A stretch of DNA of 64,000 bases, from NCBI GenBank assembly GCA_964497315.1, contig CAZCCH010000001.1, positions 56,106 to 120,105 of the forward strand, given 5' to 3'. The DNA comes from an uncultured Planctomycetia bacterium. GTDB lineage: Bacteria > Omnitrophota > Gorgyraeia > Taenaricolales > CAZCCH01. Positions within the stretch are counted from its first letter, which is position 1, and each line of letters opens with the position of its first letter. Below are positions 30,280-37,828 of the stretch, one piece after another. A model generated the notes under the pieces. That model ran no database searches, was not told the DNA's origin, and saw only the letters and a list, made by a program, of their open reading frames with translations. The position numbers and the translations under genes were made by a program.

Positions 30280-31990
30280 CTTTCACCTCCTTTGAAACCC
30301 TCTGGATAAATTCATCCAACTTCACGACACCTTCATTGGCATTAGCTTTGCTCCTCACTGAAACCGTATTACCTTCTTTTTCCTTTTGACCAACAATTAA
30401 CATGTAAGGGACCTTCTGTGTTTGATTATCCCTAATTCTATAATTGAGTGTTTCTGACCTTGAGTCAACTTCAGCCCTTATGGAATTATCGATTAAATTT
30501 CTTTTTACTTCTTCTGCGTATTCTGTAAATACCGAAGATATAGGAATTATTACAACTTGAACGGGTGCTAACCAAACAGGCAAAGCCCCTGCATAATGCT
30601 CCAATAATGCACCCATAAAGCGTTCTATGCTGCCAAGGACAACCCTGTGTAACATAACAGGTCTTTTCTTTTTTCCTTCTGTATCAATATATGAAAGCTT
30701 AAACCTTTCAGGTAAAGCAAAATCACACTGTATGGTTGCACACTGCCAGTTTCTGCCTAAGGCATCTTTTAATTTTATGTCAATTTTTGGACCATAAAAG
30801 GCACCTTCGCCTTGGCATATTTCATATTCTAAATTGTGTTTTTCTAAGGCTCCCCTTAGGGCATCTTCGGCCTTCTTCCAGTCCTGGTCAGTACCTATGG
30901 ATTTTGCTGGCCTTGTGCTTATTTCAATTCCAAAGGAATTAAACCCAAAAATCTTTAACGCATCAATTACAAAATCAATCACCTTTGTTATCTCATCAGT
31001 CAATTGTTCTGGCAGGCAGAATATATGCGCATCGTCTTGAGTAAAACCTCTGACTCGCAAAAGACCATGTAGTACCCCGGCCTTTTCATATCTGTAAACA
31101 CTGCCAAGTTCAAAATACCTAAGTGGTAATTCTTTATAGCTTCTTATAGTATTACTATATATTAAAATGTGTCCTGGGCAATTCATAGGTTTAACAGCAT
31201 ATTCCTGGCCTTCAATCTTAAATATATACATCATGTCTTTGTAATACTCATAATGCCCAGACTTCACCCAGATATCAGATTTTAATATGTGAGGCCCTAC
31301 TGCTAGTTGATAGCCTCTTTTTATGTGTTCTTTCTTTAGCCAGTCTTCGATTAGTGTACGAAGCATTGCACCCTTGGGGTGATACAACGGGAGGCCTGCA
31401 CCTATTTCAGGATGAAAACTAAAAAATCCAAGTTCTTTTCCAAGTTTACGGTGATCTCTTTTTTCAGCTTCTTTTATTAAATTTAGGTATTTCCTAAGGT
31501 CTTTCTCAGTAGGAAAGGCAGTGCCATAAATCCTCTGAAGCATAGGGTTGGTTTCAAGACCATGCCAGTAAGCACCTGCAACGCTCAACAACTTAAATGC
31601 CTTCACCTGAGCAGTTGACTCAACATGCGGCCCCTTGCAAAGATCAATGAAACTCCCATGTCTATAAATTGAAACTTCATTATCCGGTAATGCCTCTATT
31701 AGCTCTAGCTTATAGGTTTCCTTTAGTTTTTTAAAGAGCTTGATGGCCTCTTTTTTTGGCATTGTCTCTTGTTCGAACTTATAGTCCTTTTTTATGATCT
31801 CGGCCATTTTCTTTTCTATTCTTTTAAGGTCTTCGGGGGTGAAGCTATCTGGTACATCGAAGTCATAGTAAAACCCATCCTTAATGGCCGGACCAATGCC
31901 AAGTCTTGCCTTAGGATAAAGCTGTTTTACTGCATCTGCCATTATGTGTGATGCGCTATGTCGTAATGCATTTAAGTTCATTTTAATCAC
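30269..31990 (-). CDS. thrS: Threonyl-tRNA synthetase, short form lacking the N-terminal TGS (N1) domain
   Basis: 573 aa. It begins at the editing-domain motif RHSASHIMADAVKQLYP (compare E. coli RHSCAHLLGHAIKQLWP), and the class II catalytic motifs are present. It is about 65 aa shorter at the N-terminus than full-length ThrS. Confidence 0.9.
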   Translation of the reverse strand: MIKMNLNALRHSASHIMADAVKQLYPKARLGIGPAIKDGFYYDFDVPDSFTPEDLKRIEKKMAEIIKKDYKFEQETMPKKEAIKLFKKLKETYKLELIEALPDNEVSIYRHGSFIDLCKGPHVESTAQVKAFKLLSVAGAYWHGLETNPMLQRIYGTAFPTEKDLRKYLNLIKEAEKRDHRKLGKELGFFSFHPEIGAGLPLYHPKGAMLRTLIEDWLKKEHIKRGYQLAVGPHILKSDIWVKSGHYEYYKDMMYIFKIEGQEYAVKPMNCPGHILIYSNTIRSYKELPLRYFELGSVYRYEKAGVLHGLLRVRGFTQDDAHIFCLPEQLTDEITKVIDFVIDALKIFGFNSFGIEISTRPAKSIGTDQDWKKAEDALRGALEKHNLEYEICQGEGAFYGPKIDIKLKDALGRNWQCATIQCDFALPERFKLSYIDTEGKKKRPVMLHRVVLGSIERFMGALLEHYAGALPVWLAPVQVVIIPISSVFTEYAEEVKRNLIDNSIRAEVDSRSETLNYRIRDNQTQKVPYMLIVGQKEKEGNTVSVRSKANANEGVVKLDEFIQRVSKEVKDYS

Positions 31991-32597
31991 TAATAGTCTT
32001 TGTTAAATGCTCCTCTATAGAGTTATTTAGCCACTCCCATAATTTTAAATTATGGTATTGCAATGTCGCAATACCATATTGAGACCATTGCTTATGCTCT
32101 TTGCTCCTCTTATCTGTATGTGTATATGTAAGAATCCTGCTTGGTGATATTTTCAACTTTTTCACCCAGTACTTCTTAGCTTTTTCTTTGCTAAAATCCT
32201 TATAGACTCGAACATATAATCTAAGTCTTTCCTCATGCACCCTGCAAATCTTTCTCAAAAACTCTACAAACAGTTGCAGCATTCTAGGATCTAGGTTTGC
32301 AAGTTGTGTTGAGCCTTTCGCTGATTTACTACCCTCGGCCCAATATAACATTAGCCCGGTTAGCAAAAGATCTTTTTCTCTTCCACTAAGTCGCTTTTTG
32401 ATGTTAAAGGGGTCTCCTTTTGGATTCAATTTACAATATGTGCTATCGCTATATGCTCTTCGGTCTAACCCATGCTTTTTCATCCAATAATTGACTGTTG
32501 CGTGCGTAGTATTTAATCTACTAGCTATATCCATCATGGATAATTTCTTTTTATTGTACAAATCAAAAAGTAGTTTCTTTTGCATAGTTACCTTCAT
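31983..32597 (-). CDS. Hypothetical HTH-containing protein with a weak LAGLIDADG-like motif (possible homing-endonuclease-like)
   Basis: 204 aa. N-terminal HTH (LSMMDIASRLNTTHATVNYWMKKHGL). There is a segment LLLTGLMLYWAEGSKS resembling LAGLIDADG/LAGFFDAEGS dodecapeptides. It overlaps the thrS start by 8 nt and abuts the tRNA pair. Confidence 0.35.
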   Translation of the reverse strand: MKVTMQKKLLFDLYNKKKLSMMDIASRLNTTHATVNYWMKKHGLDRRAYSDSTYCKLNPKGDPFNIKKRLSGREKDLLLTGLMLYWAEGSKSAKGSTQLANLDPRMLQLFVEFLRKICRVHEERLRLYVRVYKDFSKEKAKKYWVKKLKISPSRILTYTHTDKRSKEHKQWSQYGIATLQYHNLKLWEWLNNSIEEHLTKTISD

Positions 32598-32603
32598 TCA
32601 ATA

Positions 32604-32680
32604 TGGTGGGCGGTACAGGATTTGAACCTGTGGCCTTTTCCATGTCAAGGAAACGCGCTAGCCAACTGCGCCAACCGCCC
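32604..32680 (-). tRNA. tRNA-Val (anticodon GAC)
   Basis: The reverse complement reads GGGCGGTTGGCGCAGTTGGCTAGCGCGTTTCCTTGACATGGAAAAGGCCACAGGTTCAAATCCTGTACCGCCCACCA. It forms a cloverleaf with anticodon loop TTGACAT and an encoded CCA. Confidence 0.85.
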
Positions 32681-32682
32681 TC

Positions 32683-32770
32683 TGGTGCCGGGAGCCGGAG
32701 TCGAACCGGCACGAGCTTAAAGCCCAATGGATTTTAAGTCCACATTGTCTACCAATTCCAACATCCCGGC
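32683..32770 (-). tRNA. tRNA-Leu (anticodon TAA), long variable arm
   Basis: The reverse complement reads GCCGGGATGTTGGAATTGGTAGACAATGTGGACTTAAAATCCATTGGGCTTTAAGCTCGTGCCGGTTCGACTCCGGCTCCCGGCACCA. Anticodon loop CTTAAAA; 88 nt with an encoded CCA. Confidence 0.85.
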
Positions 32771-32948
32771 GTTCTTTTGCTATACTCTTGTCCTTCTTCT
32801 ATTATAATATAGTATGGGTATAATAGCAAATAGCTTTTATTATGTCAAGTATTCTTATGATAGTCTCCCTATTTATATTGTGAAAATCTTCACAAGGCAT
32901 AAAGCAGCTCTTTTATACCCTTTTTAAGGTAACATTTAACTTTTTTAG

Positions 32949-34352
32949 CTATTCAACTAAAAATACAGCTATTAATCCACCACCCCTGGAAACATTTACT
33001 ACCTGTTTTTGAGAAGATCTTCCCAAAAACGCAATGCCTGAAGGTGTGGCTGCAAACCCTGAAACAACAAAAAGCTCTTTGAAAAACAACCGACCATCTT
33101 TGGTAATAACAGGGAATTTATCTTTGTATATAGGCACTGCTTCTTGGACTACCATAGTGCTGGGGTGCTTAACCGCTCTTTCTAAGGTCTTCTCCCATTT
33201 ACCTTGGTTTGTTTCCCTACCTATTACTACACCCTCACCACCACAGGCGCGATTAGGCTTTATGACAAGTTCTGTCCTATTAGAACGAATGTATTTTATT
33301 AAATCAATTTTCTTTTCCTTTTTATCTTTTGTTTTTCTTTCCCATATAAGTCTAGTCCAAGCAACATGTTTTCTAAAAAATCCCCGTTGTGCTTGAGTAA
33401 AGCATTTCTTAAATTCTGATGAGGTAAAAACCTCAAAAGAAGATTTGTGATCAAAGTCTCCTGAAAAACCTGATATTACTCTATTCTCCTTAAAGGCCTC
33501 TCTTATTGCCTCAATAGAGTCTCCTGCTTCTTCCATTTCAATAAGTTCTTCTAATTCGCTGTCACGATATATTATATCGACGGGCGTATCATCATAACAA
33601 ACCTTTCCCTTCTTCAAGTGTAACTGCCTGGGGTCTGCAACAAATGCCTTTATACCTCGCTGGTTGAAAAATTCAGCTATGCTTGAAAGTTCATCTGTGC
33701 CTTCTTGATAAGACCTGTCCTCAATAAAAACAACTCTGTTAAGCTCACGGCCCAATTGTTTAGAGTGTGTGAGCATAACCTCCATTAAAAGCTCTCGGAC
33801 ATCTTTGAGTTTTTGTAATTTTAGTTTTGGAGAAAACTGTTTTAATTGCGGTAAGATTAATTCTTCTATTAACTCAACTGCTGCAGGTATGTAATGAATT
33901 CCGCCTGCAGCAACAGAATTTGCCTCTATAAATTTAAAGCTAGTCTTCCAGTCTTTATGCCAAAATAAGGCGTTTGCATCCAGTCTTTCAAAAACACTTT
34001 GTGGGGTTTGTGGCTTGACAGGACAAATCTCATGAAACCACTCATCTTCTTTTTGAGAAAGTGGGATGATTTTTCTTATAGGTGGGTAGGCTAGGTATAA
34101 ACTGAATAGCTCAGAGAGTGCGTCTCGCAGGAGAAGTGATGCCTTCTTGAAAAATACCTGTTGTTCTCGACTAACAAACCAGGGTGAGAGCTCTACATTA
34201 ATAGGAATAACTTTCGCCTTTTCATCATAAACAATAAGACCCTTTTTTAGGGTCTGTTTTTCTATTTTTCTATAAAGCTCTCTTATGGTTTGGCTTGATA
34301 ATTTAGCGAATGCCTCGAATATACGCTCTCTAGCAAATTGTTCTTTCTTCAC
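32949..34352 (-). CDS. ATP-grasp-superfamily-like protein, possibly a circularly permuted ATP-grasp / glutathionylspermidine-synthetase-like ligase
   Basis: 467 aa. Near the C-terminus it has LVIKPNRACGGEGVVIG (the ATP-grasp central-domain signature [VI]xKPxxxxxGxGV) followed by VSRGGG. The N-terminal ~350 aa cannot be assigned. The assignment is tentative. Confidence 0.35.
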   Translation of the reverse strand: MKKEQFARERIFEAFAKLSSQTIRELYRKIEKQTLKKGLIVYDEKAKVIPINVELSPWFVSREQQVFFKKASLLLRDALSELFSLYLAYPPIRKIIPLSQKEDEWFHEICPVKPQTPQSVFERLDANALFWHKDWKTSFKFIEANSVAAGGIHYIPAAVELIEELILPQLKQFSPKLKLQKLKDVRELLMEVMLTHSKQLGRELNRVVFIEDRSYQEGTDELSSIAEFFNQRGIKAFVADPRQLHLKKGKVCYDDTPVDIIYRDSELEELIEMEEAGDSIEAIREAFKENRVISGFSGDFDHKSSFEVFTSSEFKKCFTQAQRGFFRKHVAWTRLIWERKTKDKKEKKIDLIKYIRSNRTELVIKPNRACGGEGVVIGRETNQGKWEKTLERAVKHPSTMVVQEAVPIYKDKFPVITKDGRLFFKELFVVSGFAATPSGIAFLGRSSQKQVVNVSRGGGLIAVFLVE

Positions 34353-34427
34353 ACTACTATTTTACTAAACTATAGAACATATTTCCATTGAATTTTTCTA
34401 CACCAAATGCTATAGTAAGCACTGAAA

Positions 34428-35873
34428 ATGAAAACATTGCTTTCGAAAACAATTAAGCATCTAAAAAAATCAGGCGTCGACTATGCTGACCTTCGATATA
34501 TAACATCAACACATGAGGCAATCTTAGTAGAAAATAACCAAGTCAAGTCAATATCTTTTGATGTTGATGAGGGTGTTGGTGTAAGAGTTTTTTCAAAAGG
34601 CAGCTGGGGTTTTGCCTGCACGCCTAAGCTTACATGGGATCAAATTAAATCAACTGCTGATGTGGCCTTAGCAATTGCTCGTTCCTGTAGCTCTATAAAT
34701 AAGAAAAAATATAAATTCCCCTCGGGAAGTCCAATAAAGGCAAATTTCAAAAGTCCTTTTGAAATAGATCCATTTACCATACCTTTAGAAAAAAAACTTG
34801 ACTATCTTCTGTGGGCATCTCAAGAATTAAAATCCCACCCCAATATAAAAACCGCTATATCTGGTTTTGATTTTTTCAAAACAAATAAATTATTTTTTAA
34901 TACAGAAGGTTCTGAAATCAGCCAAAAGATTTTAGAAAGCGGGGGACATATTGAGGCAATTGCTACAGGTGCAGGTGATGTGCAAAAGCGCTCTTATCCA
35001 TCTTCTCATCATTGCGAGCTTGCACAGGCAGGCTATGAATATGTAAAGGCCTTAGACTTAGTAGGGGGTGCTAGAAAAATACGCAAAGAGGCAGTTAGCC
35101 TCCTCAGGGCAAAGGAATGTCCGAATAAAAAAACTACGCTTATCCTTGATGGCTCACAAATGGCTTTACAAATACATGAATCTTGCGGCCATCCGGCAGA
35201 ATTAGACAGACTCTTAGGTAGAGAAATCTCTTTAGCCGGTGATAGTTTTTTAACTTTAGAAAAGCTAAATAAATTTAAATATGGCTCTAAGCTCGTCAAT
35301 ATCTATTCTGATCCAACAATAGAAGGAGGTGCGGGAAGCTTTGGATATGATGATGAAGGAACCCCTGCTAAAAAGGCATACTTGGTTAAAGATGGCATTT
35401 TCACAGGATACCTTACCTCGAAAGAAACCGCTGCACACTTTGATATAGAAAACACCGGCTGCATGCGTGCAAGCGGGTGGAATAGAACACCTCTTATTAG
35501 AATGACCAATATAAACATAGAGCCCCAAGATGCAACACTAGAAGAACTCATCAAAGAGGTAAGAAACGGTGTTTTTATGTCAACAAATAAAAGCTGGTCC
35601 ATTGATGAAAAAAGATTAAATTTTCAGTTTTCTACAGAGATTGCCTGGGAGATAAAAAATGGAGAGCTTACTCAGGTATTAAAAAACCCGCTATATGCCT
35701 CAACTACTCCTATCTTTTGGAATAGCTGCAGTGGCATTTCCAATAAAGATCATTGGCGGATGTGGTCTGTTTCAGATTGCGGAAAGGGTGAACCCATGCA
35801 GACAATGCATGTCGGCCATGGAACAGCACCTGCCAGATTTGAAAATATACAGGTGAGGTCTGCTGCAAAATGA
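34428..35873 (+). CDS. tldD: Metalloprotease TldD
   Basis: 481 aa. N-terminus YADLRYITSTHEAILVENNQV, the metal-binding HESCGHPAE (HExxxH) motif and the C-terminal GxC motif region of the TldD/PmbA family. Confidence 0.85.
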   Translation: MKTLLSKTIKHLKKSGVDYADLRYITSTHEAILVENNQVKSISFDVDEGVGVRVFSKGSWGFACTPKLTWDQIKSTADVALAIARSCSSINKKKYKFPSGSPIKANFKSPFEIDPFTIPLEKKLDYLLWASQELKSHPNIKTAISGFDFFKTNKLFFNTEGSEISQKILESGGHIEAIATGAGDVQKRSYPSSHHCELAQAGYEYVKALDLVGGARKIRKEAVSLLRAKECPNKKTTLILDGSQMALQIHESCGHPAELDRLLGREISLAGDSFLTLEKLNKFKYGSKLVNIYSDPTIEGGAGSFGYDDEGTPAKKAYLVKDGIFTGYLTSKETAAHFDIENTGCMRASGWNRTPLIRMTNINIEPQDATLEELIKEVRNGVFMSTNKSWSIDEKRLNFQFSTEIAWEIKNGELTQVLKNPLYASTTPIFWNSCSGISNKDHWRMWSVSDCGKGEPMQTMHVGHGTAPARFENIQVRSAAK

Positions 35874-37207
35874 TTGGTAAAGAAAAATCCCTAGATTTAC
35901 TATCAGGTTTAATAAAAAAATCCCCGGCGGATCAAACATCTCTTGTCTTGGTTAATACAAAAAGATTTACCTCTCGCTTTGCTAATTACGCAATCCATCA
36001 AAGCATGCAAGAGCAAGAGGTTGCAATTTATATTAAAGTAGCCTTAGGTTCTAAGCTAGGTGTTGCCTCAACCGGCTCTATAAAAAAGTCCAACTTAAAA
36101 ACTGCTCTCGAGCGGGCCCTGCATATTGCAAAACATTCCCCTAAAAACCCAAGGCTTAAATCCTTCCCTAAACCTGATGAACAAACTGAAATTAAAACCT
36201 GTCATCCAAAAACAACTTGTTTTAGTGCATCTGATAAGTTAGGGTTACTTTGTAAAATCTTTGATATGCACAAACCATCAAAAACAAACCCTGCTGGTTC
36301 TTTCTTGACGGGCGAAGAAGAAATGGCTGTAGTTAATTCAAATGGCCTCATAAAATATCAGCCTTTTAGCCTTGCAGGTCTTAAGTTGATTTCTGCTAAA
36401 GACCATGCCTCTGGTTTTGCAACTTGGGCATCAAGAAATATTGAAGATTTACAAATAGAGGCTGTTGTAGAGCAAGCAATAAGAAAATGTAACTTAGCTA
36501 AAAATCCCAAGCCAATAGCTCCGGGTAATTATGATTGTATTTTAGAACCGGCTGCTGTAGCTGAAATCTTACAGTGGCTCTCCTATATAGGTTTTGGCGC
36601 AAAGTCTTTTTGTGAAAGAATGAGTTTTTTATGCGGCAGGATAGGTGACAAGATAATGTCAAAAGACATTAGTATATACGATGATGGAGAAAACGCGGAA
36701 GGTTTTGCTAATCCCTTTGATTATGAAGGTGTAAACAAAAAAAGGGTTTCATTAATTGAAGAGGGTGTAGCAAGGGGACCCGTATACGACAGTGAGTATT
36801 CTTATATGAATGAGGGTTCCTCGACGGGACACGCCCTCCCCCCTGATGAAACCATTGGACCCTTACCTTCAAACTTGATTATGTTAAATGGCGAGTCTAA
36901 TTTAGGTGATATGATTACTTCTTTATCCAAGGGGATTTTAATAACACGTTTTCATTATGTAAATGGCCTTCTTAATACAAGAGAAGCTGTCATGACAGGC
37001 ATGACAAGGGATGGGACTTTCTTAATTCAAGATGGCAAGATAAAACATGCGCTTAAAAACTTAAGATTTACTCAATCTATCCTAAAGGCCTTCTCTCAAA
37101 TAGCTGCTATATCAAAACAAAGACAACTCATTGGTGACCTCACTCAGGATGAACCGCCCTGCCTTGTTCCAGCCCTCCTTATAAAAGATTTTACCTTTAC
37201 AAGTTGA
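35870..37207 (+). CDS. pmbA: Metalloprotease PmbA/TldE (TldD partner subunit)
   Basis: 445 aa TldD/PmbA family paralog, translationally coupled (4-nt overlap) with tldD. Confidence 0.8.
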   Translation: MIGKEKSLDLLSGLIKKSPADQTSLVLVNTKRFTSRFANYAIHQSMQEQEVAIYIKVALGSKLGVASTGSIKKSNLKTALERALHIAKHSPKNPRLKSFPKPDEQTEIKTCHPKTTCFSASDKLGLLCKIFDMHKPSKTNPAGSFLTGEEEMAVVNSNGLIKYQPFSLAGLKLISAKDHASGFATWASRNIEDLQIEAVVEQAIRKCNLAKNPKPIAPGNYDCILEPAAVAEILQWLSYIGFGAKSFCERMSFLCGRIGDKIMSKDISIYDDGENAEGFANPFDYEGVNKKRVSLIEEGVARGPVYDSEYSYMNEGSSTGHALPPDETIGPLPSNLIMLNGESNLGDMITSLSKGILITRFHYVNGLLNTREAVMTGMTRDGTFLIQDGKIKHALKNLRFTQSILKAFSQIAAISKQRQLIGDLTQDEPPCLVPALLIKDFTFTS

Positions 37208-37250
37208 AAAAAGACAGGTTCTATTGTAGAAGAACCTGTCCATATAATAA

Positions 37251-37765
37251 TGGTGCCGGGACCCAGAATCGAACTGATTGAGATAGCAAAATCTTCTTTG
37301 CTTCTCCCGAACCGTGCGTGCGGATTTCCCGCACACGGCTCTCTCTATGAGTCTGCACTCATAGACCAGCACCCCTTCGTTTGCTAGCGGTTAAACTAGC
37401 TTTAAAACACTACTATGGGTGCATCTGAGACCCTGCTTAATAGCAGGGGTTCACCCGGTCAGTTAATCAACTTTTCCTTGCATCCCAACCCTAACCACAC
37501 CCAGTATTAAGTTTGTGTTTTTGACTTCCCTGTTGTGCCGCTAGGTCGTCAATACTGGGAGCCACCGTGGGTTCGCTTTCGCTTTGGGCTGCAATTTGCT
37601 ATTAGGACCCTTTCTGAAACCTGTCTCCAAATTTCAGTGTCCGTTTGCTACTATGGTAAAACACTAACCATAGGCCCGATTCTAACGGACTAGCTAATTA
37701 ACCTGCAGGTCGCAAGGCACGCAGGGCTTTTCAGGCCCTCGCTCTACCAACTGAGCTATCCCGGC
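37251..37765 (-). tRNA. tRNA-Phe (anticodon GAA), split gene. Exon 1 is 37716..37765 (50 nt) and exon 2 is 37251..37276 (26 nt including CCA), separated by a 439-nt intron in the T-stem between tRNA positions 50 and 51
   Basis: Exon 1 reverse complement: GCCGGGATAGCTCAGTTGGTAGAGCGAGGGCCTGAAAAGCCCTGCGTGCC (acceptor, D-arm, anticodon arm with loop CTGAAAA, variable GCGTG, CC). Exon 2: CAGTTCGATTCTGGGTCCCGGCACCA. Joined, they give a canonical 76-nt tRNA-Phe with a perfect CCCAG/CTGGG T-stem and a GCCGGGA/TCCCGGC acceptor stem, closely matching E. coli tRNA-Phe. Confidence 0.8.
37277..37715 (-). other. ORF-less group II-like intron (439 nt) interrupting the tRNA-Phe T-stem. Domain V is at ~37305..37340
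   Basis: The RNA-sense sequence GAGCCGUGUGCGGGAAAUCCGCACGCACGGUUCGGG matches the group II domain V consensus. It has the AGC triad pairing with GUU, a GAAA-type loop and the conserved 2-nt bulge in the 3' strand. A short D6-like hairpin (AGCAAA...UUUGCU) follows, and the intron ends ...CUCAAU (AY). A possible EBS1 GGCAC (plus strand 37537..37541) could pair with the exon 1 end GUGCC. The intron begins UUGCG rather than the canonical GUGYG. Confidence 0.6.
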
Positions 37766-37828
37766 ACCTTGTATGCGTCACTATTGTATCAAATCATGTA
37801 TATATCTTCAAGAAAAATCAAAAATTGC

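Follow-up and report, generated by a model that had tools for sequence, protein, structure and literature searches.

The window analyzed here, a stretch of 64,000 nucleotides of contig CAZCCH010000001.1 from an uncultured bacterium of the Omnitrophota, harbors a gene for a 467-aa protein that starts with GTG on the minus strand and diverges from tldD and tldE, the genes for the two subunits of a metallopeptidase (481 and 445 aa, respectively), with 75 bp between the divergent starts (Table 1). This arrangement of the three open reading frames (ORFs) had been described in the original prediction, a note made from the sequence alone, and it is found as described; the stop codon of tldD and the start codon of tldE, for which translational coupling had been proposed, share the ATGA at 35870-35873. 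The window has a G+C content of ~38%, and its genes lie almost without exception on the minus strand; tldD and tldE depart from this bias, which shows as a local reversal of the GC skew. The nearest relatives of the 467-aa protein come from metagenome-assembled genomes (MAGs) of Candidatus Omnitrophota. The evidence presented below places this protein among the circularly permuted ATP-grasp ligases and suggests that it is functionally coupled to peptidases, in this genome to the TldD/TldE pair.

A permuted ATP-grasp or glutathionylspermidine (GSP)-synthetase-like ligase had been predicted from two motifs, KPNRACGGEGVVIG at residues 365-378 and VVNVSRGGG at 451-459, both of which are present in the protein. 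In the corresponding Pfam search, the window ligase matched CP_ATPgrasp_2 (PF14403) with 26.8 bits and CP_ATPgrasp_1 (PF04174) with 17.1 bits; the anticipated families were recovered, although the scores remained under the gathering cut-offs of 32 and 23.1, respectively, and these matches are confined to residues 352-410. NCBIfam holds no model matching the protein, and a search of the Protein Data Bank (PDB) with the single sequence gave a weak match to 3n6x, the CP_ATPgrasp_1 structure, and nothing else. The family profile matches 3n6x over both halves (E 5.6e-10), with 'flEpN' opposite 'LEDN' and the K-P-x-x-x-G-G segment aligned, and PF14403 is matched at E <= 1e-3 by 28 of the 38 sequences of the family alignment (A1; 32-67% identity to the window ligase), the best of them at 2.7e-8. 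The window ligase is formally outside PF14403 and PF04174 and represents a sister family instead. Alignment A1 contains 35 invariant columns, which include E143, N145, K303, K365, P366, G371, G372, Q403, R445 and N453. In the glycine-rich segment, V375 and G378 are invariant as well, and the segment around K365 aligns to the Pfam CP_ATPgrasp models, to 3n6x and to the fungal ligase Cp1B; in the C-terminal motif, V452 and N453 are invariant and G458 and G459 nearly so, and the motif aligns with 'VVNSSQGGG' of 3n6x. By analogy with the motifs of 3n6x and Cp1B, these residues would have the roles given in Table 1.

The confident AlphaFold2 model of the window ligase obtained from the family alignment (predicted local distance difference test score, pLDDT, 93.6; predicted template modeling score, pTM, 0.92) gave full-length matches in a Foldseek search against the PDB (E 1e-16 to 1e-10) to eukaryote-type glutathione and homoglutathione synthetases, Cp1B, 3n6x, YjfC/YgiC and glutathionylspermidine synthetase, the best being the eukaryote-type glutathione synthetases (TM 0.64-0.71). 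In ordinary ATP-grasp enzymes, the E-x-N motif lies C-terminal to the ATP-binding lysine; in the window ligase it lies ~220 residues N-terminal to it, so the segment order is permuted, and the permutation inferred in the original prediction is therefore correct. The protein thus combines an ATP-grasp fold in permuted segment order with conserved nucleotide- and Mg-binding residues, and profile and fold searches alike place it among the circularly permuted ATP-grasp amidoligases and not in a non-ligase family. Its identity as a permuted ATP-grasp ligase is hardly in doubt.

Both proteins of the plus strand contain PmbA_TldD Pfam domains (135 and 148 bits against a cut-off of 22). The 481-aa protein has the HExxxH motif, as HESCGH (35175-35192), and a Cys-Gly-Lys metal ligand (35778-35786), neither of which was detected in the 445-aa protein by a motif check; the pair therefore consists of a TldD and a TldE, in the sense of the catalytic and non-catalytic subunits described for Escherichia coli (PMC5810440). 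Judged by their scores with the NCBIfam equivalog models (168, 116 and 34 bits against cut-offs of 635, 513 and 438, respectively), which do not reach the equivalog level, the two are divergent members of the family. TldD/E proteins are nearly universal in bacteria and archaea, with known roles in microcin maturation and CcdA degradation. The E. coli heterodimer takes only unfolded peptides, which thread through a pore (PMC5810440), and homologues are described as small-molecule N-deacetylases in the title of a review cited in PMC12424672.

Table 1. Features of the putative ligase-tldDE module and of the apparent split tRNA gene adjacent to it in the window.
Feature	Position	Strand	Basis or remarks
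Ligase gene, circularly permuted ATP-grasp carboxylate-amine ligase	32949..34352	-	Distant relative of Pfam CP_ATPgrasp_2 and CP_ATPgrasp_1
E143-A-N145, putative E-x-N Mg/ATP motif	33918..33926	-	E143 and N145 invariant in 38 members; aligns with 'LEDN' of 3n6x
K365 to G378 (KPNRACGGEGVVIG), putative ATP-binding lysine and glycine-rich loop	33219..33260	-	Alignment A1
V451 to G459 (VVNVSRGGG), putative C-terminal active-site strand and loop	32976..33002	-	Alignment A1
Divergent intergenic region, 75 bp, promoter-like hexamers back-to-back	34353..34427	.	Consensus matches, not above chance
tldD, TldD/E metallopeptidase catalytic subunit	34428..35873	+	Pfam PmbA_TldD 1st, 2nd and 3rd domains; motifs
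tldE (pmbA), non-catalytic partner subunit	35870..37207	+	Pfam PmbA_TldD_3rd, 147.6 bits; no HExxxH
Promoter-like site of tRNA-Phe	37811-37783	-	Promoter scan
tRNA-Phe 5' exon, 50 nt (acceptor strand, D arm, anticodon arm)	37765-37716	-	
Group II intron	37715-37277	-	Rfam D1-D4 hits; D5/D6 58 bits (cut-off 40)
tRNA-Phe 3' exon, 26 nt (T loop, acceptor strand, encoded CCA)	37276-37251	-	
Terminator hairpin of tRNA-Phe	37241-37212	-	

An exhaustive hidden Markov model search of 1.84 billion representative proteins recovered 547 clusters of the ligase family at E <= 1e-30, a number that rises to 2321 at E <= 1e-10, and relatives occur in at least 547 species (one genome per species) of Omnitrophota, Chloroflexota, Myxococcota, Planctomycetota and other groups. 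The loci of 80 species were fetched, TldD/E genes were located in them by tblastn, and the results were placed on a neighbor-joining tree of the ligases. In the Omnitrophota clade, which comprises 33 loci in addition to the window and ligases 37-47% identical to that of the window, upstream sequence was sufficient for judgment in 27 loci, and 26 of these have tldD or tldD-tldE divergently upstream of the ligase gene, the exception being L034; the distance is usually 60-400 bp, and in two loci there is an insertion in between. The outer flanks vary, with a biotin operon in some loci and unrelated genes elsewhere, and the ligase-tldD-tldE trio alone is kept; the adjacency noted in the original prediction is, in consequence, conserved in related genomes. 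In a subclade of Anaerolineae, a TldE-type gene is located directly downstream of the ligase gene and in the same direction in all six informative loci, accompanied by tldD in L061, and in L082, the locus of the distant member P0146, a TldD-type gene with HESIGH follows the ligase gene after 34 nt. Only in particular clades is the ligase paired with tldDE; the family in its entirety does not share this feature. As for other recurrent neighbors, the biotin operon of Omnitrophota and, in Anaerolineae, the genes for SpoU and RsmI methyltransferases and cystathionine beta-synthase were considered as partners and rejected as unrelated housekeeping genes. A conserved protein of ~185 aa with HELTH, which resembles HExxH, and no Pfam match is encoded convergently, just after tldE or one ORF beyond it, in the Anaerolineae subclade whose tldE follows the ligase gene (L056 11007-11567, L057 11583-12131 and L076 11199-11888, all on the minus strand).

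Outside these clades, the ligase is fused or adjacent to other amide-bond hydrolases. Fusions with an M32 carboxypeptidase are found in P0134, P0138, P0149 and the truncated P0136, and a Peptidase_Mx-ligase fusion in P0189; both full-length M32 fusions (P0134 and P0138) keep the ligase K-P-N-R-x-Y-G-G and the peptidase HExxH, and P0189 keeps the HEAGH of Peptidase_Mx and the E-x-N motif of the ligase. L072 and L074 contain the same M32 fusion with no in-frame stop codon, and the fusion genes are solitary, without other conserved partners. In six Anaerolineae loci, an M32 gene is located 1.3-3.5 kb downstream of the ligase gene in the same direction. A DUF885 gene, from a family that Pfam assigns to a zinc-metallopeptidase clan (PMC12572635), overlaps the ligase stop codon (ATGA) in L088 and L089; two Myxococcota loci carry one upstream, on the strand opposite to the ligase, and a gene of the S9 (prolyl-oligopeptidase) family is found directly upstream of the ligase gene and co-directional with it in L071 and L064. 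Altogether, the ligase is paired with five peptidase families, most of them mutually unrelated, and such pairings are spread over no fewer than seven separate clades of its tree, so that the combination of a ligase and a peptidase proposed in the original prediction recurs independently, as fusion or adjacency, with four peptidase families other than TldD/E in other phyla. Because of the number of families and clades, the fusions and the overlapping start and stop codons, the pairing is, by a rough estimate in which peptidase genes are taken as a few percent of a genome, far above chance adjacency. In the literature, no description of an association of ATP-grasp enzymes with TldD or with M32 was found.

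Several members stand in other contexts. P0244, a protein of 3684 aa, contains condensation, carrier and thioesterase domains of a non-ribosomal peptide synthetase (C-PCP-TE) followed by five stretches matching the ligase family; it could be an assembly line using permuted ATP-grasp modules or a gene-calling artefact, and, as a single case, it fits a role of the family in small-peptide synthesis. A Ser/Thr protein kinase gene (L083 6658-9057, L086 1814-2224) is the next one downstream, co-directional, of each of the distant members P0181 and P0160, and in a Chlamydiae MAG (L023 6317-7342, minus strand) an ATP-grasp enzyme of the D-Ala-D-Ala ligase type is encoded divergently upstream of the ligase, which places two amide ligases back to back.

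Taken as a whole, these data point to a functional two-enzyme module made up of the ligase and a peptidase for short, unfolded peptides, a reading to which a probability of about 0.55 is assigned; that the ligase is functionally coupled to peptidases is probable. What the ligase does, that its substrate is a peptide and in which order the two enzymes work can be inferred as follows. Every characterized member of the fold clade activates a small carboxylate as acyl-phosphate and couples it to an amine. By analogy, the protein would be an ADP-forming carboxylate-amine ligase with the same reaction, the carboxylate most likely being that of an amino-acid-like acid or of the C-terminus of a short peptide, and the amine most likely an amino acid. 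Glutathione synthetase activates the C-terminus of gamma-Glu-Cys, and GSP synthetase that of glutathione. Cp1B activates epoxysuccinate (PMC12568646). In the Omnitrophota, this genome included, the peptidase partner would be the caged TldD/TldE heterodimer, and the same role would be played elsewhere by an M32 carboxypeptidase, DUF885, Peptidase_Mx or S9, in some cases fused to the ligase; the M32 enzymes are named carboxypeptidases by Pfam, and the partner enzymes are oligopeptidases or exopeptidases. Both enzymes may act on the same pool of small peptides, either with the peptidase trimming a peptide to the form that is extended by the ligase, or with the peptidase hydrolyzing the ligase product, as a synthetase/hydrolase pair like glutathionylspermidine synthetase/amidase.

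Some observations weigh against this module. No peptidase was found within 8 kb in ~25 of the 80 loci, which include part of those of Myxococcota, Thermoflexales and Pirellulales and a Chlamydiae MAG, a soft negative because ORF calling in high-GC contigs was crude, and many ORFs adjoining the ligase in high-GC loci have no Pfam hit and are perhaps spurious. TldD/E, M32 and S9 are common housekeeping peptidases, and in one Anaerolineae group methyltransferase genes stand between the ligase and the M32 gene. In the window, the ligase and tldDE are divergent and not co-transcribed. The spacer contains hexamers back-to-back, TTGAAT-17-TATAGT for tldD and TGGAAA-17-TAAAAT for the ligase; nevertheless, of the shared divergent promoter proposed in the original prediction, the 75-bp divergent spacer stands and the promoter itself is conjectural, as the scan gave 16 promoter-like sites in this AT-rich region against 12 +/- 3 by chance. 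Co-regulation of the ligase and tldDE from the spacer is presumed here. Finally, a role unrelated to proteolysis is possible because all characterized structural relatives use small molecules.

One alternative is that the two enzymes have independent functions. The ligase would then produce a small metabolite, for example a dipeptide, a polyamine conjugate or a thiol peptide resembling glutathione, and its position next to tldDE in Omnitrophota would be inherited synteny with no functional meaning. The characterized structural relatives, including Cp1B (PMC12568646), are small-molecule ligases without exception, many members of the family have no peptidase nearby, and the divergent genes of the window come with weak promoter evidence; however, the adjacency has outlasted a divergence of the ligases to 37-47% identity and the exchange of both outer flanks, it arose again in a different orientation in Anaerolineae and L082, and fusions and overlapping start and stop codons with non-homologous peptidases are hard to ascribe to drift, which renders independent functions doubtful. 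A second possibility would be tagging for degradation. Peptides or proteins would receive one or more residues from the ligase, at the C-terminus or at a side-chain carboxylate, and would thereby be delivered to the caged peptidase, in a bacterial counterpart to tag-dependent proteolysis or to the tubulin tyrosination/carboxypeptidase cycle. Tagging was reportedly proposed by Iyer et al. in 2009 for CP_ATPgrasp_1 operons that contain Anbu. It would agree with the nature of the partner peptidases, which are compartmentalized or are exopeptidases that need free termini (PMC5810440), and with the ammosamide pathway, where the addition of a C-terminal Arg turns a peptide into a TldD/E substrate (PMC12424672). 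Nevertheless, there is no evidence for macromolecular substrates, the structural neighbors act on small molecules, neighbor scans found no adaptor, unfoldase or target gene conserved nearby, and a ligase fused to a carboxypeptidase would remove its own tag unless the steps were ordered, so that tagging for degradation is quite unlikely.

The third alternative is a pathway for a peptide that is made on the ribosome and modified after translation (RiPP), or one of the pearlin type, in which the ligase would modify a precursor or scaffold peptide encoded elsewhere and TldD/E would remove a leader or free the product. TldD/E matures microcin B17 and other RiPPs and frees an ammosamide intermediate (PMC5810440, PMC12424672), and P0244 joins C-PCP-TE domains to repeated ligase modules. 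In agreement with the earlier remark that no precursor-peptide ORF was visible, a small-ORF screen of 25 Omnitrophota loci detected none that is conserved within the module or near it; the candidates for a precursor, which were rejected, comprised ORFs antisense to tldD that merely shadow it and a Cys-rich peptide shared by two loci. Neighbor scans of the window found no export, immunity or further tailoring genes at the module, nor GCS2 or M20, and alpha-E, transglutaminase-like and Anbu genes were absent among the nine window neighbors scanned and the annotated recurrent neighbor clusters of the 80 loci. A RiPP-type cluster at the module is unlikely because of the lack of a conserved small ORF and of export and immunity genes, and because the intergenic regions are taken up by tRNAs and an intron element. 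The phylum-wide and apparently single-copy distribution of the module, moreover, is closer to that of core metabolism than to the sporadic occurrence of a biosynthetic cluster, and a RiPP or pearlin-like pathway with its precursor elsewhere is very unlikely. The Cys-rich ORF itself encodes ~58 aa (MLTAFNCCVQCQNF...CCNSCSK...) and is located a few bases past the end of tldE in L006 (4893-5069) and within ~200 nt of it in L010 (4207-4386); it is not conserved in the other loci.

Under the two-enzyme module, the substrate of the ligase should reveal what the partner cytoplasmic oligopeptidases do, and it may thus help to explain TldD/E as housekeeping enzymes. Several hundred 'hypothetical proteins' from at least six phyla, mostly uncultured, can now be given a fold and a probable chemistry, and the natural ligase-peptidase fusions provide ready-made constructs for biochemistry. 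It is conceivable, although unlikely, that the ligase and its interchangeable peptidase constitute a widespread and undescribed system for editing peptide termini. A residue added to the C-terminus of a peptide or protein may in that case commit the substrate to a caged metallopeptidase without ubiquitin or Pup, or the pair may be responsible for both synthesis and turnover of a novel thiol or small peptide cofactor where the known ones are lacking (in groups such as Omnitrophota, Anaerolineae and Myxococcota).

The surroundings of the module consist of tRNA genes, thrS, infC, rplT and genes for a 4HBT thioesterase, a DUF3786 protein, an AsmA-like protein and an NYN-domain protein. Directly downstream of the ligase gene are tRNA-Leu(taa) and tRNA-Val(gac) (32604-32770, minus strand), with a promoter-like site at 32820-32848 (TTGACA-17-TATTAT, 11 of 12 consensus matches), and next come thrS, infC and rplT. 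Between tRNA-Val and thrS, a 204-aa ORF (31983-32597, minus strand), whose end overlaps the thrS start by 8 nt, shows weak sub-threshold Pfam matches (N-terminal helix-turn-helix of the MarR type) and no NCBIfam match. On the other side, between tldE and the thioesterase gene, there seems to be a complete tRNA-Phe(GAA) gene (37212-37811, minus strand) split by a group II intron of ~440 nt with no ORF of its own (Table 1). Splicing in silico yields a canonical 76-nt tRNA-Phe, whose junction would sit within the T stem; the exact 5' junction is uncertain because the junction that is optimal for the tRNA makes the intron start with UUGCG and not with GUGYG. The unspliced gene was missed by ARAGORN, and there is no other tRNA-Phe in the window. 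No such element was found in eight related Omnitrophota loci, metagenome pattern scans for a split tRNA-Phe returned nothing or organelle-like loci only, and a limited literature search found no report of a bacterial tRNA gene split by such an intron.

Among the closest known systems are the circularly permuted ATP-grasp amidoligases of Pfam CP_ATPgrasp_2 (PF14403) and CP_ATPgrasp_1 (PF04174; structure 3n6x, Mfla_0391), which were reportedly predicted by Iyer, Abhiman, Burroughs and Aravind in 2009 to make small peptides or peptide tags. The window ligase differs from them in scoring below both gathering cut-offs, with ~60 residues aligned, and in its partners. Those of CP_ATPgrasp_1/2 include the GCS2 ligase, alpha-E, transglutaminase, M20 and Anbu, none of which adjoins the window gene, whereas the family described here is associated with TldD/E, M32, DUF885, Peptidase_Mx and S9. 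In E. coli, the genes of the TldD/E pair are presumably unlinked and have no adjacent ligase gene. The E. coli proteins (5njc; PMC5810440) resemble the window pair in domain architecture, in the HExxxH motif and distal Cys present in TldD alone, and in the pairing with TldE, although the latter pair is divergent from them (the 116 and 34 bits given above, against equivalog cut-offs of 513 and 438). An ATP-dependent activation of a peptide's C-terminal carboxylate and addition of an amino acid, followed by cleavage at that place by a TldD/E heterodimer, is known from the PEARL AmmB4 and Amm12/Amm13, the TldD/E pair clipping a C-terminal dipeptide in ammosamide biosynthesis only once the ligase has added a C-terminal Arg (PMC12424672); nevertheless, PEARLs are LanB-like and aminoacyl-tRNA-dependent, and their cluster for ammosamide includes numerous tailoring enzymes as well as a precursor peptide. 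None of these is found at the window module. Cp1B (9cjn; PMC12568646), the fungal ATP-grasp ligase of E-64 biosynthesis, is accompanied in its secondary-metabolite cluster by an oxygenase and an amide-bond synthetase and has no peptidase partner. The eukaryote-type glutathione synthetases (human 2hgs, yeast 1m0w and the soybean homoglutathione synthetase 3kal), which extend short peptides by one amino acid at the C-terminal carboxylate, are of similar size (~470 aa) and match the window ligase over its full length with the same order of catalytic motifs, although identity is 11-15% with no match at the sequence level; a neighbor scan found no gamma-glutamylcysteine ligase gene next to the window ligase. 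E. coli GspSA (2io7/2io9) and its paralogues YgiC and YjfC (7uka, 7uk6) are ~10-11% identical to it, and the hydrolase of GspSA is a CHAP-type cysteine amidase, whereas the partner in the ligase family is a metallopeptidase (TldD/E, M32 and others). In summary, the fold and the idea of permuted amidoligases linked to peptidases were already known, the ligase family itself is outside the curated models and has no functional annotation, and its set of partners was not found described; nothing categorically new emerges, and what is gained is a well-supported clue to what this widespread family does.

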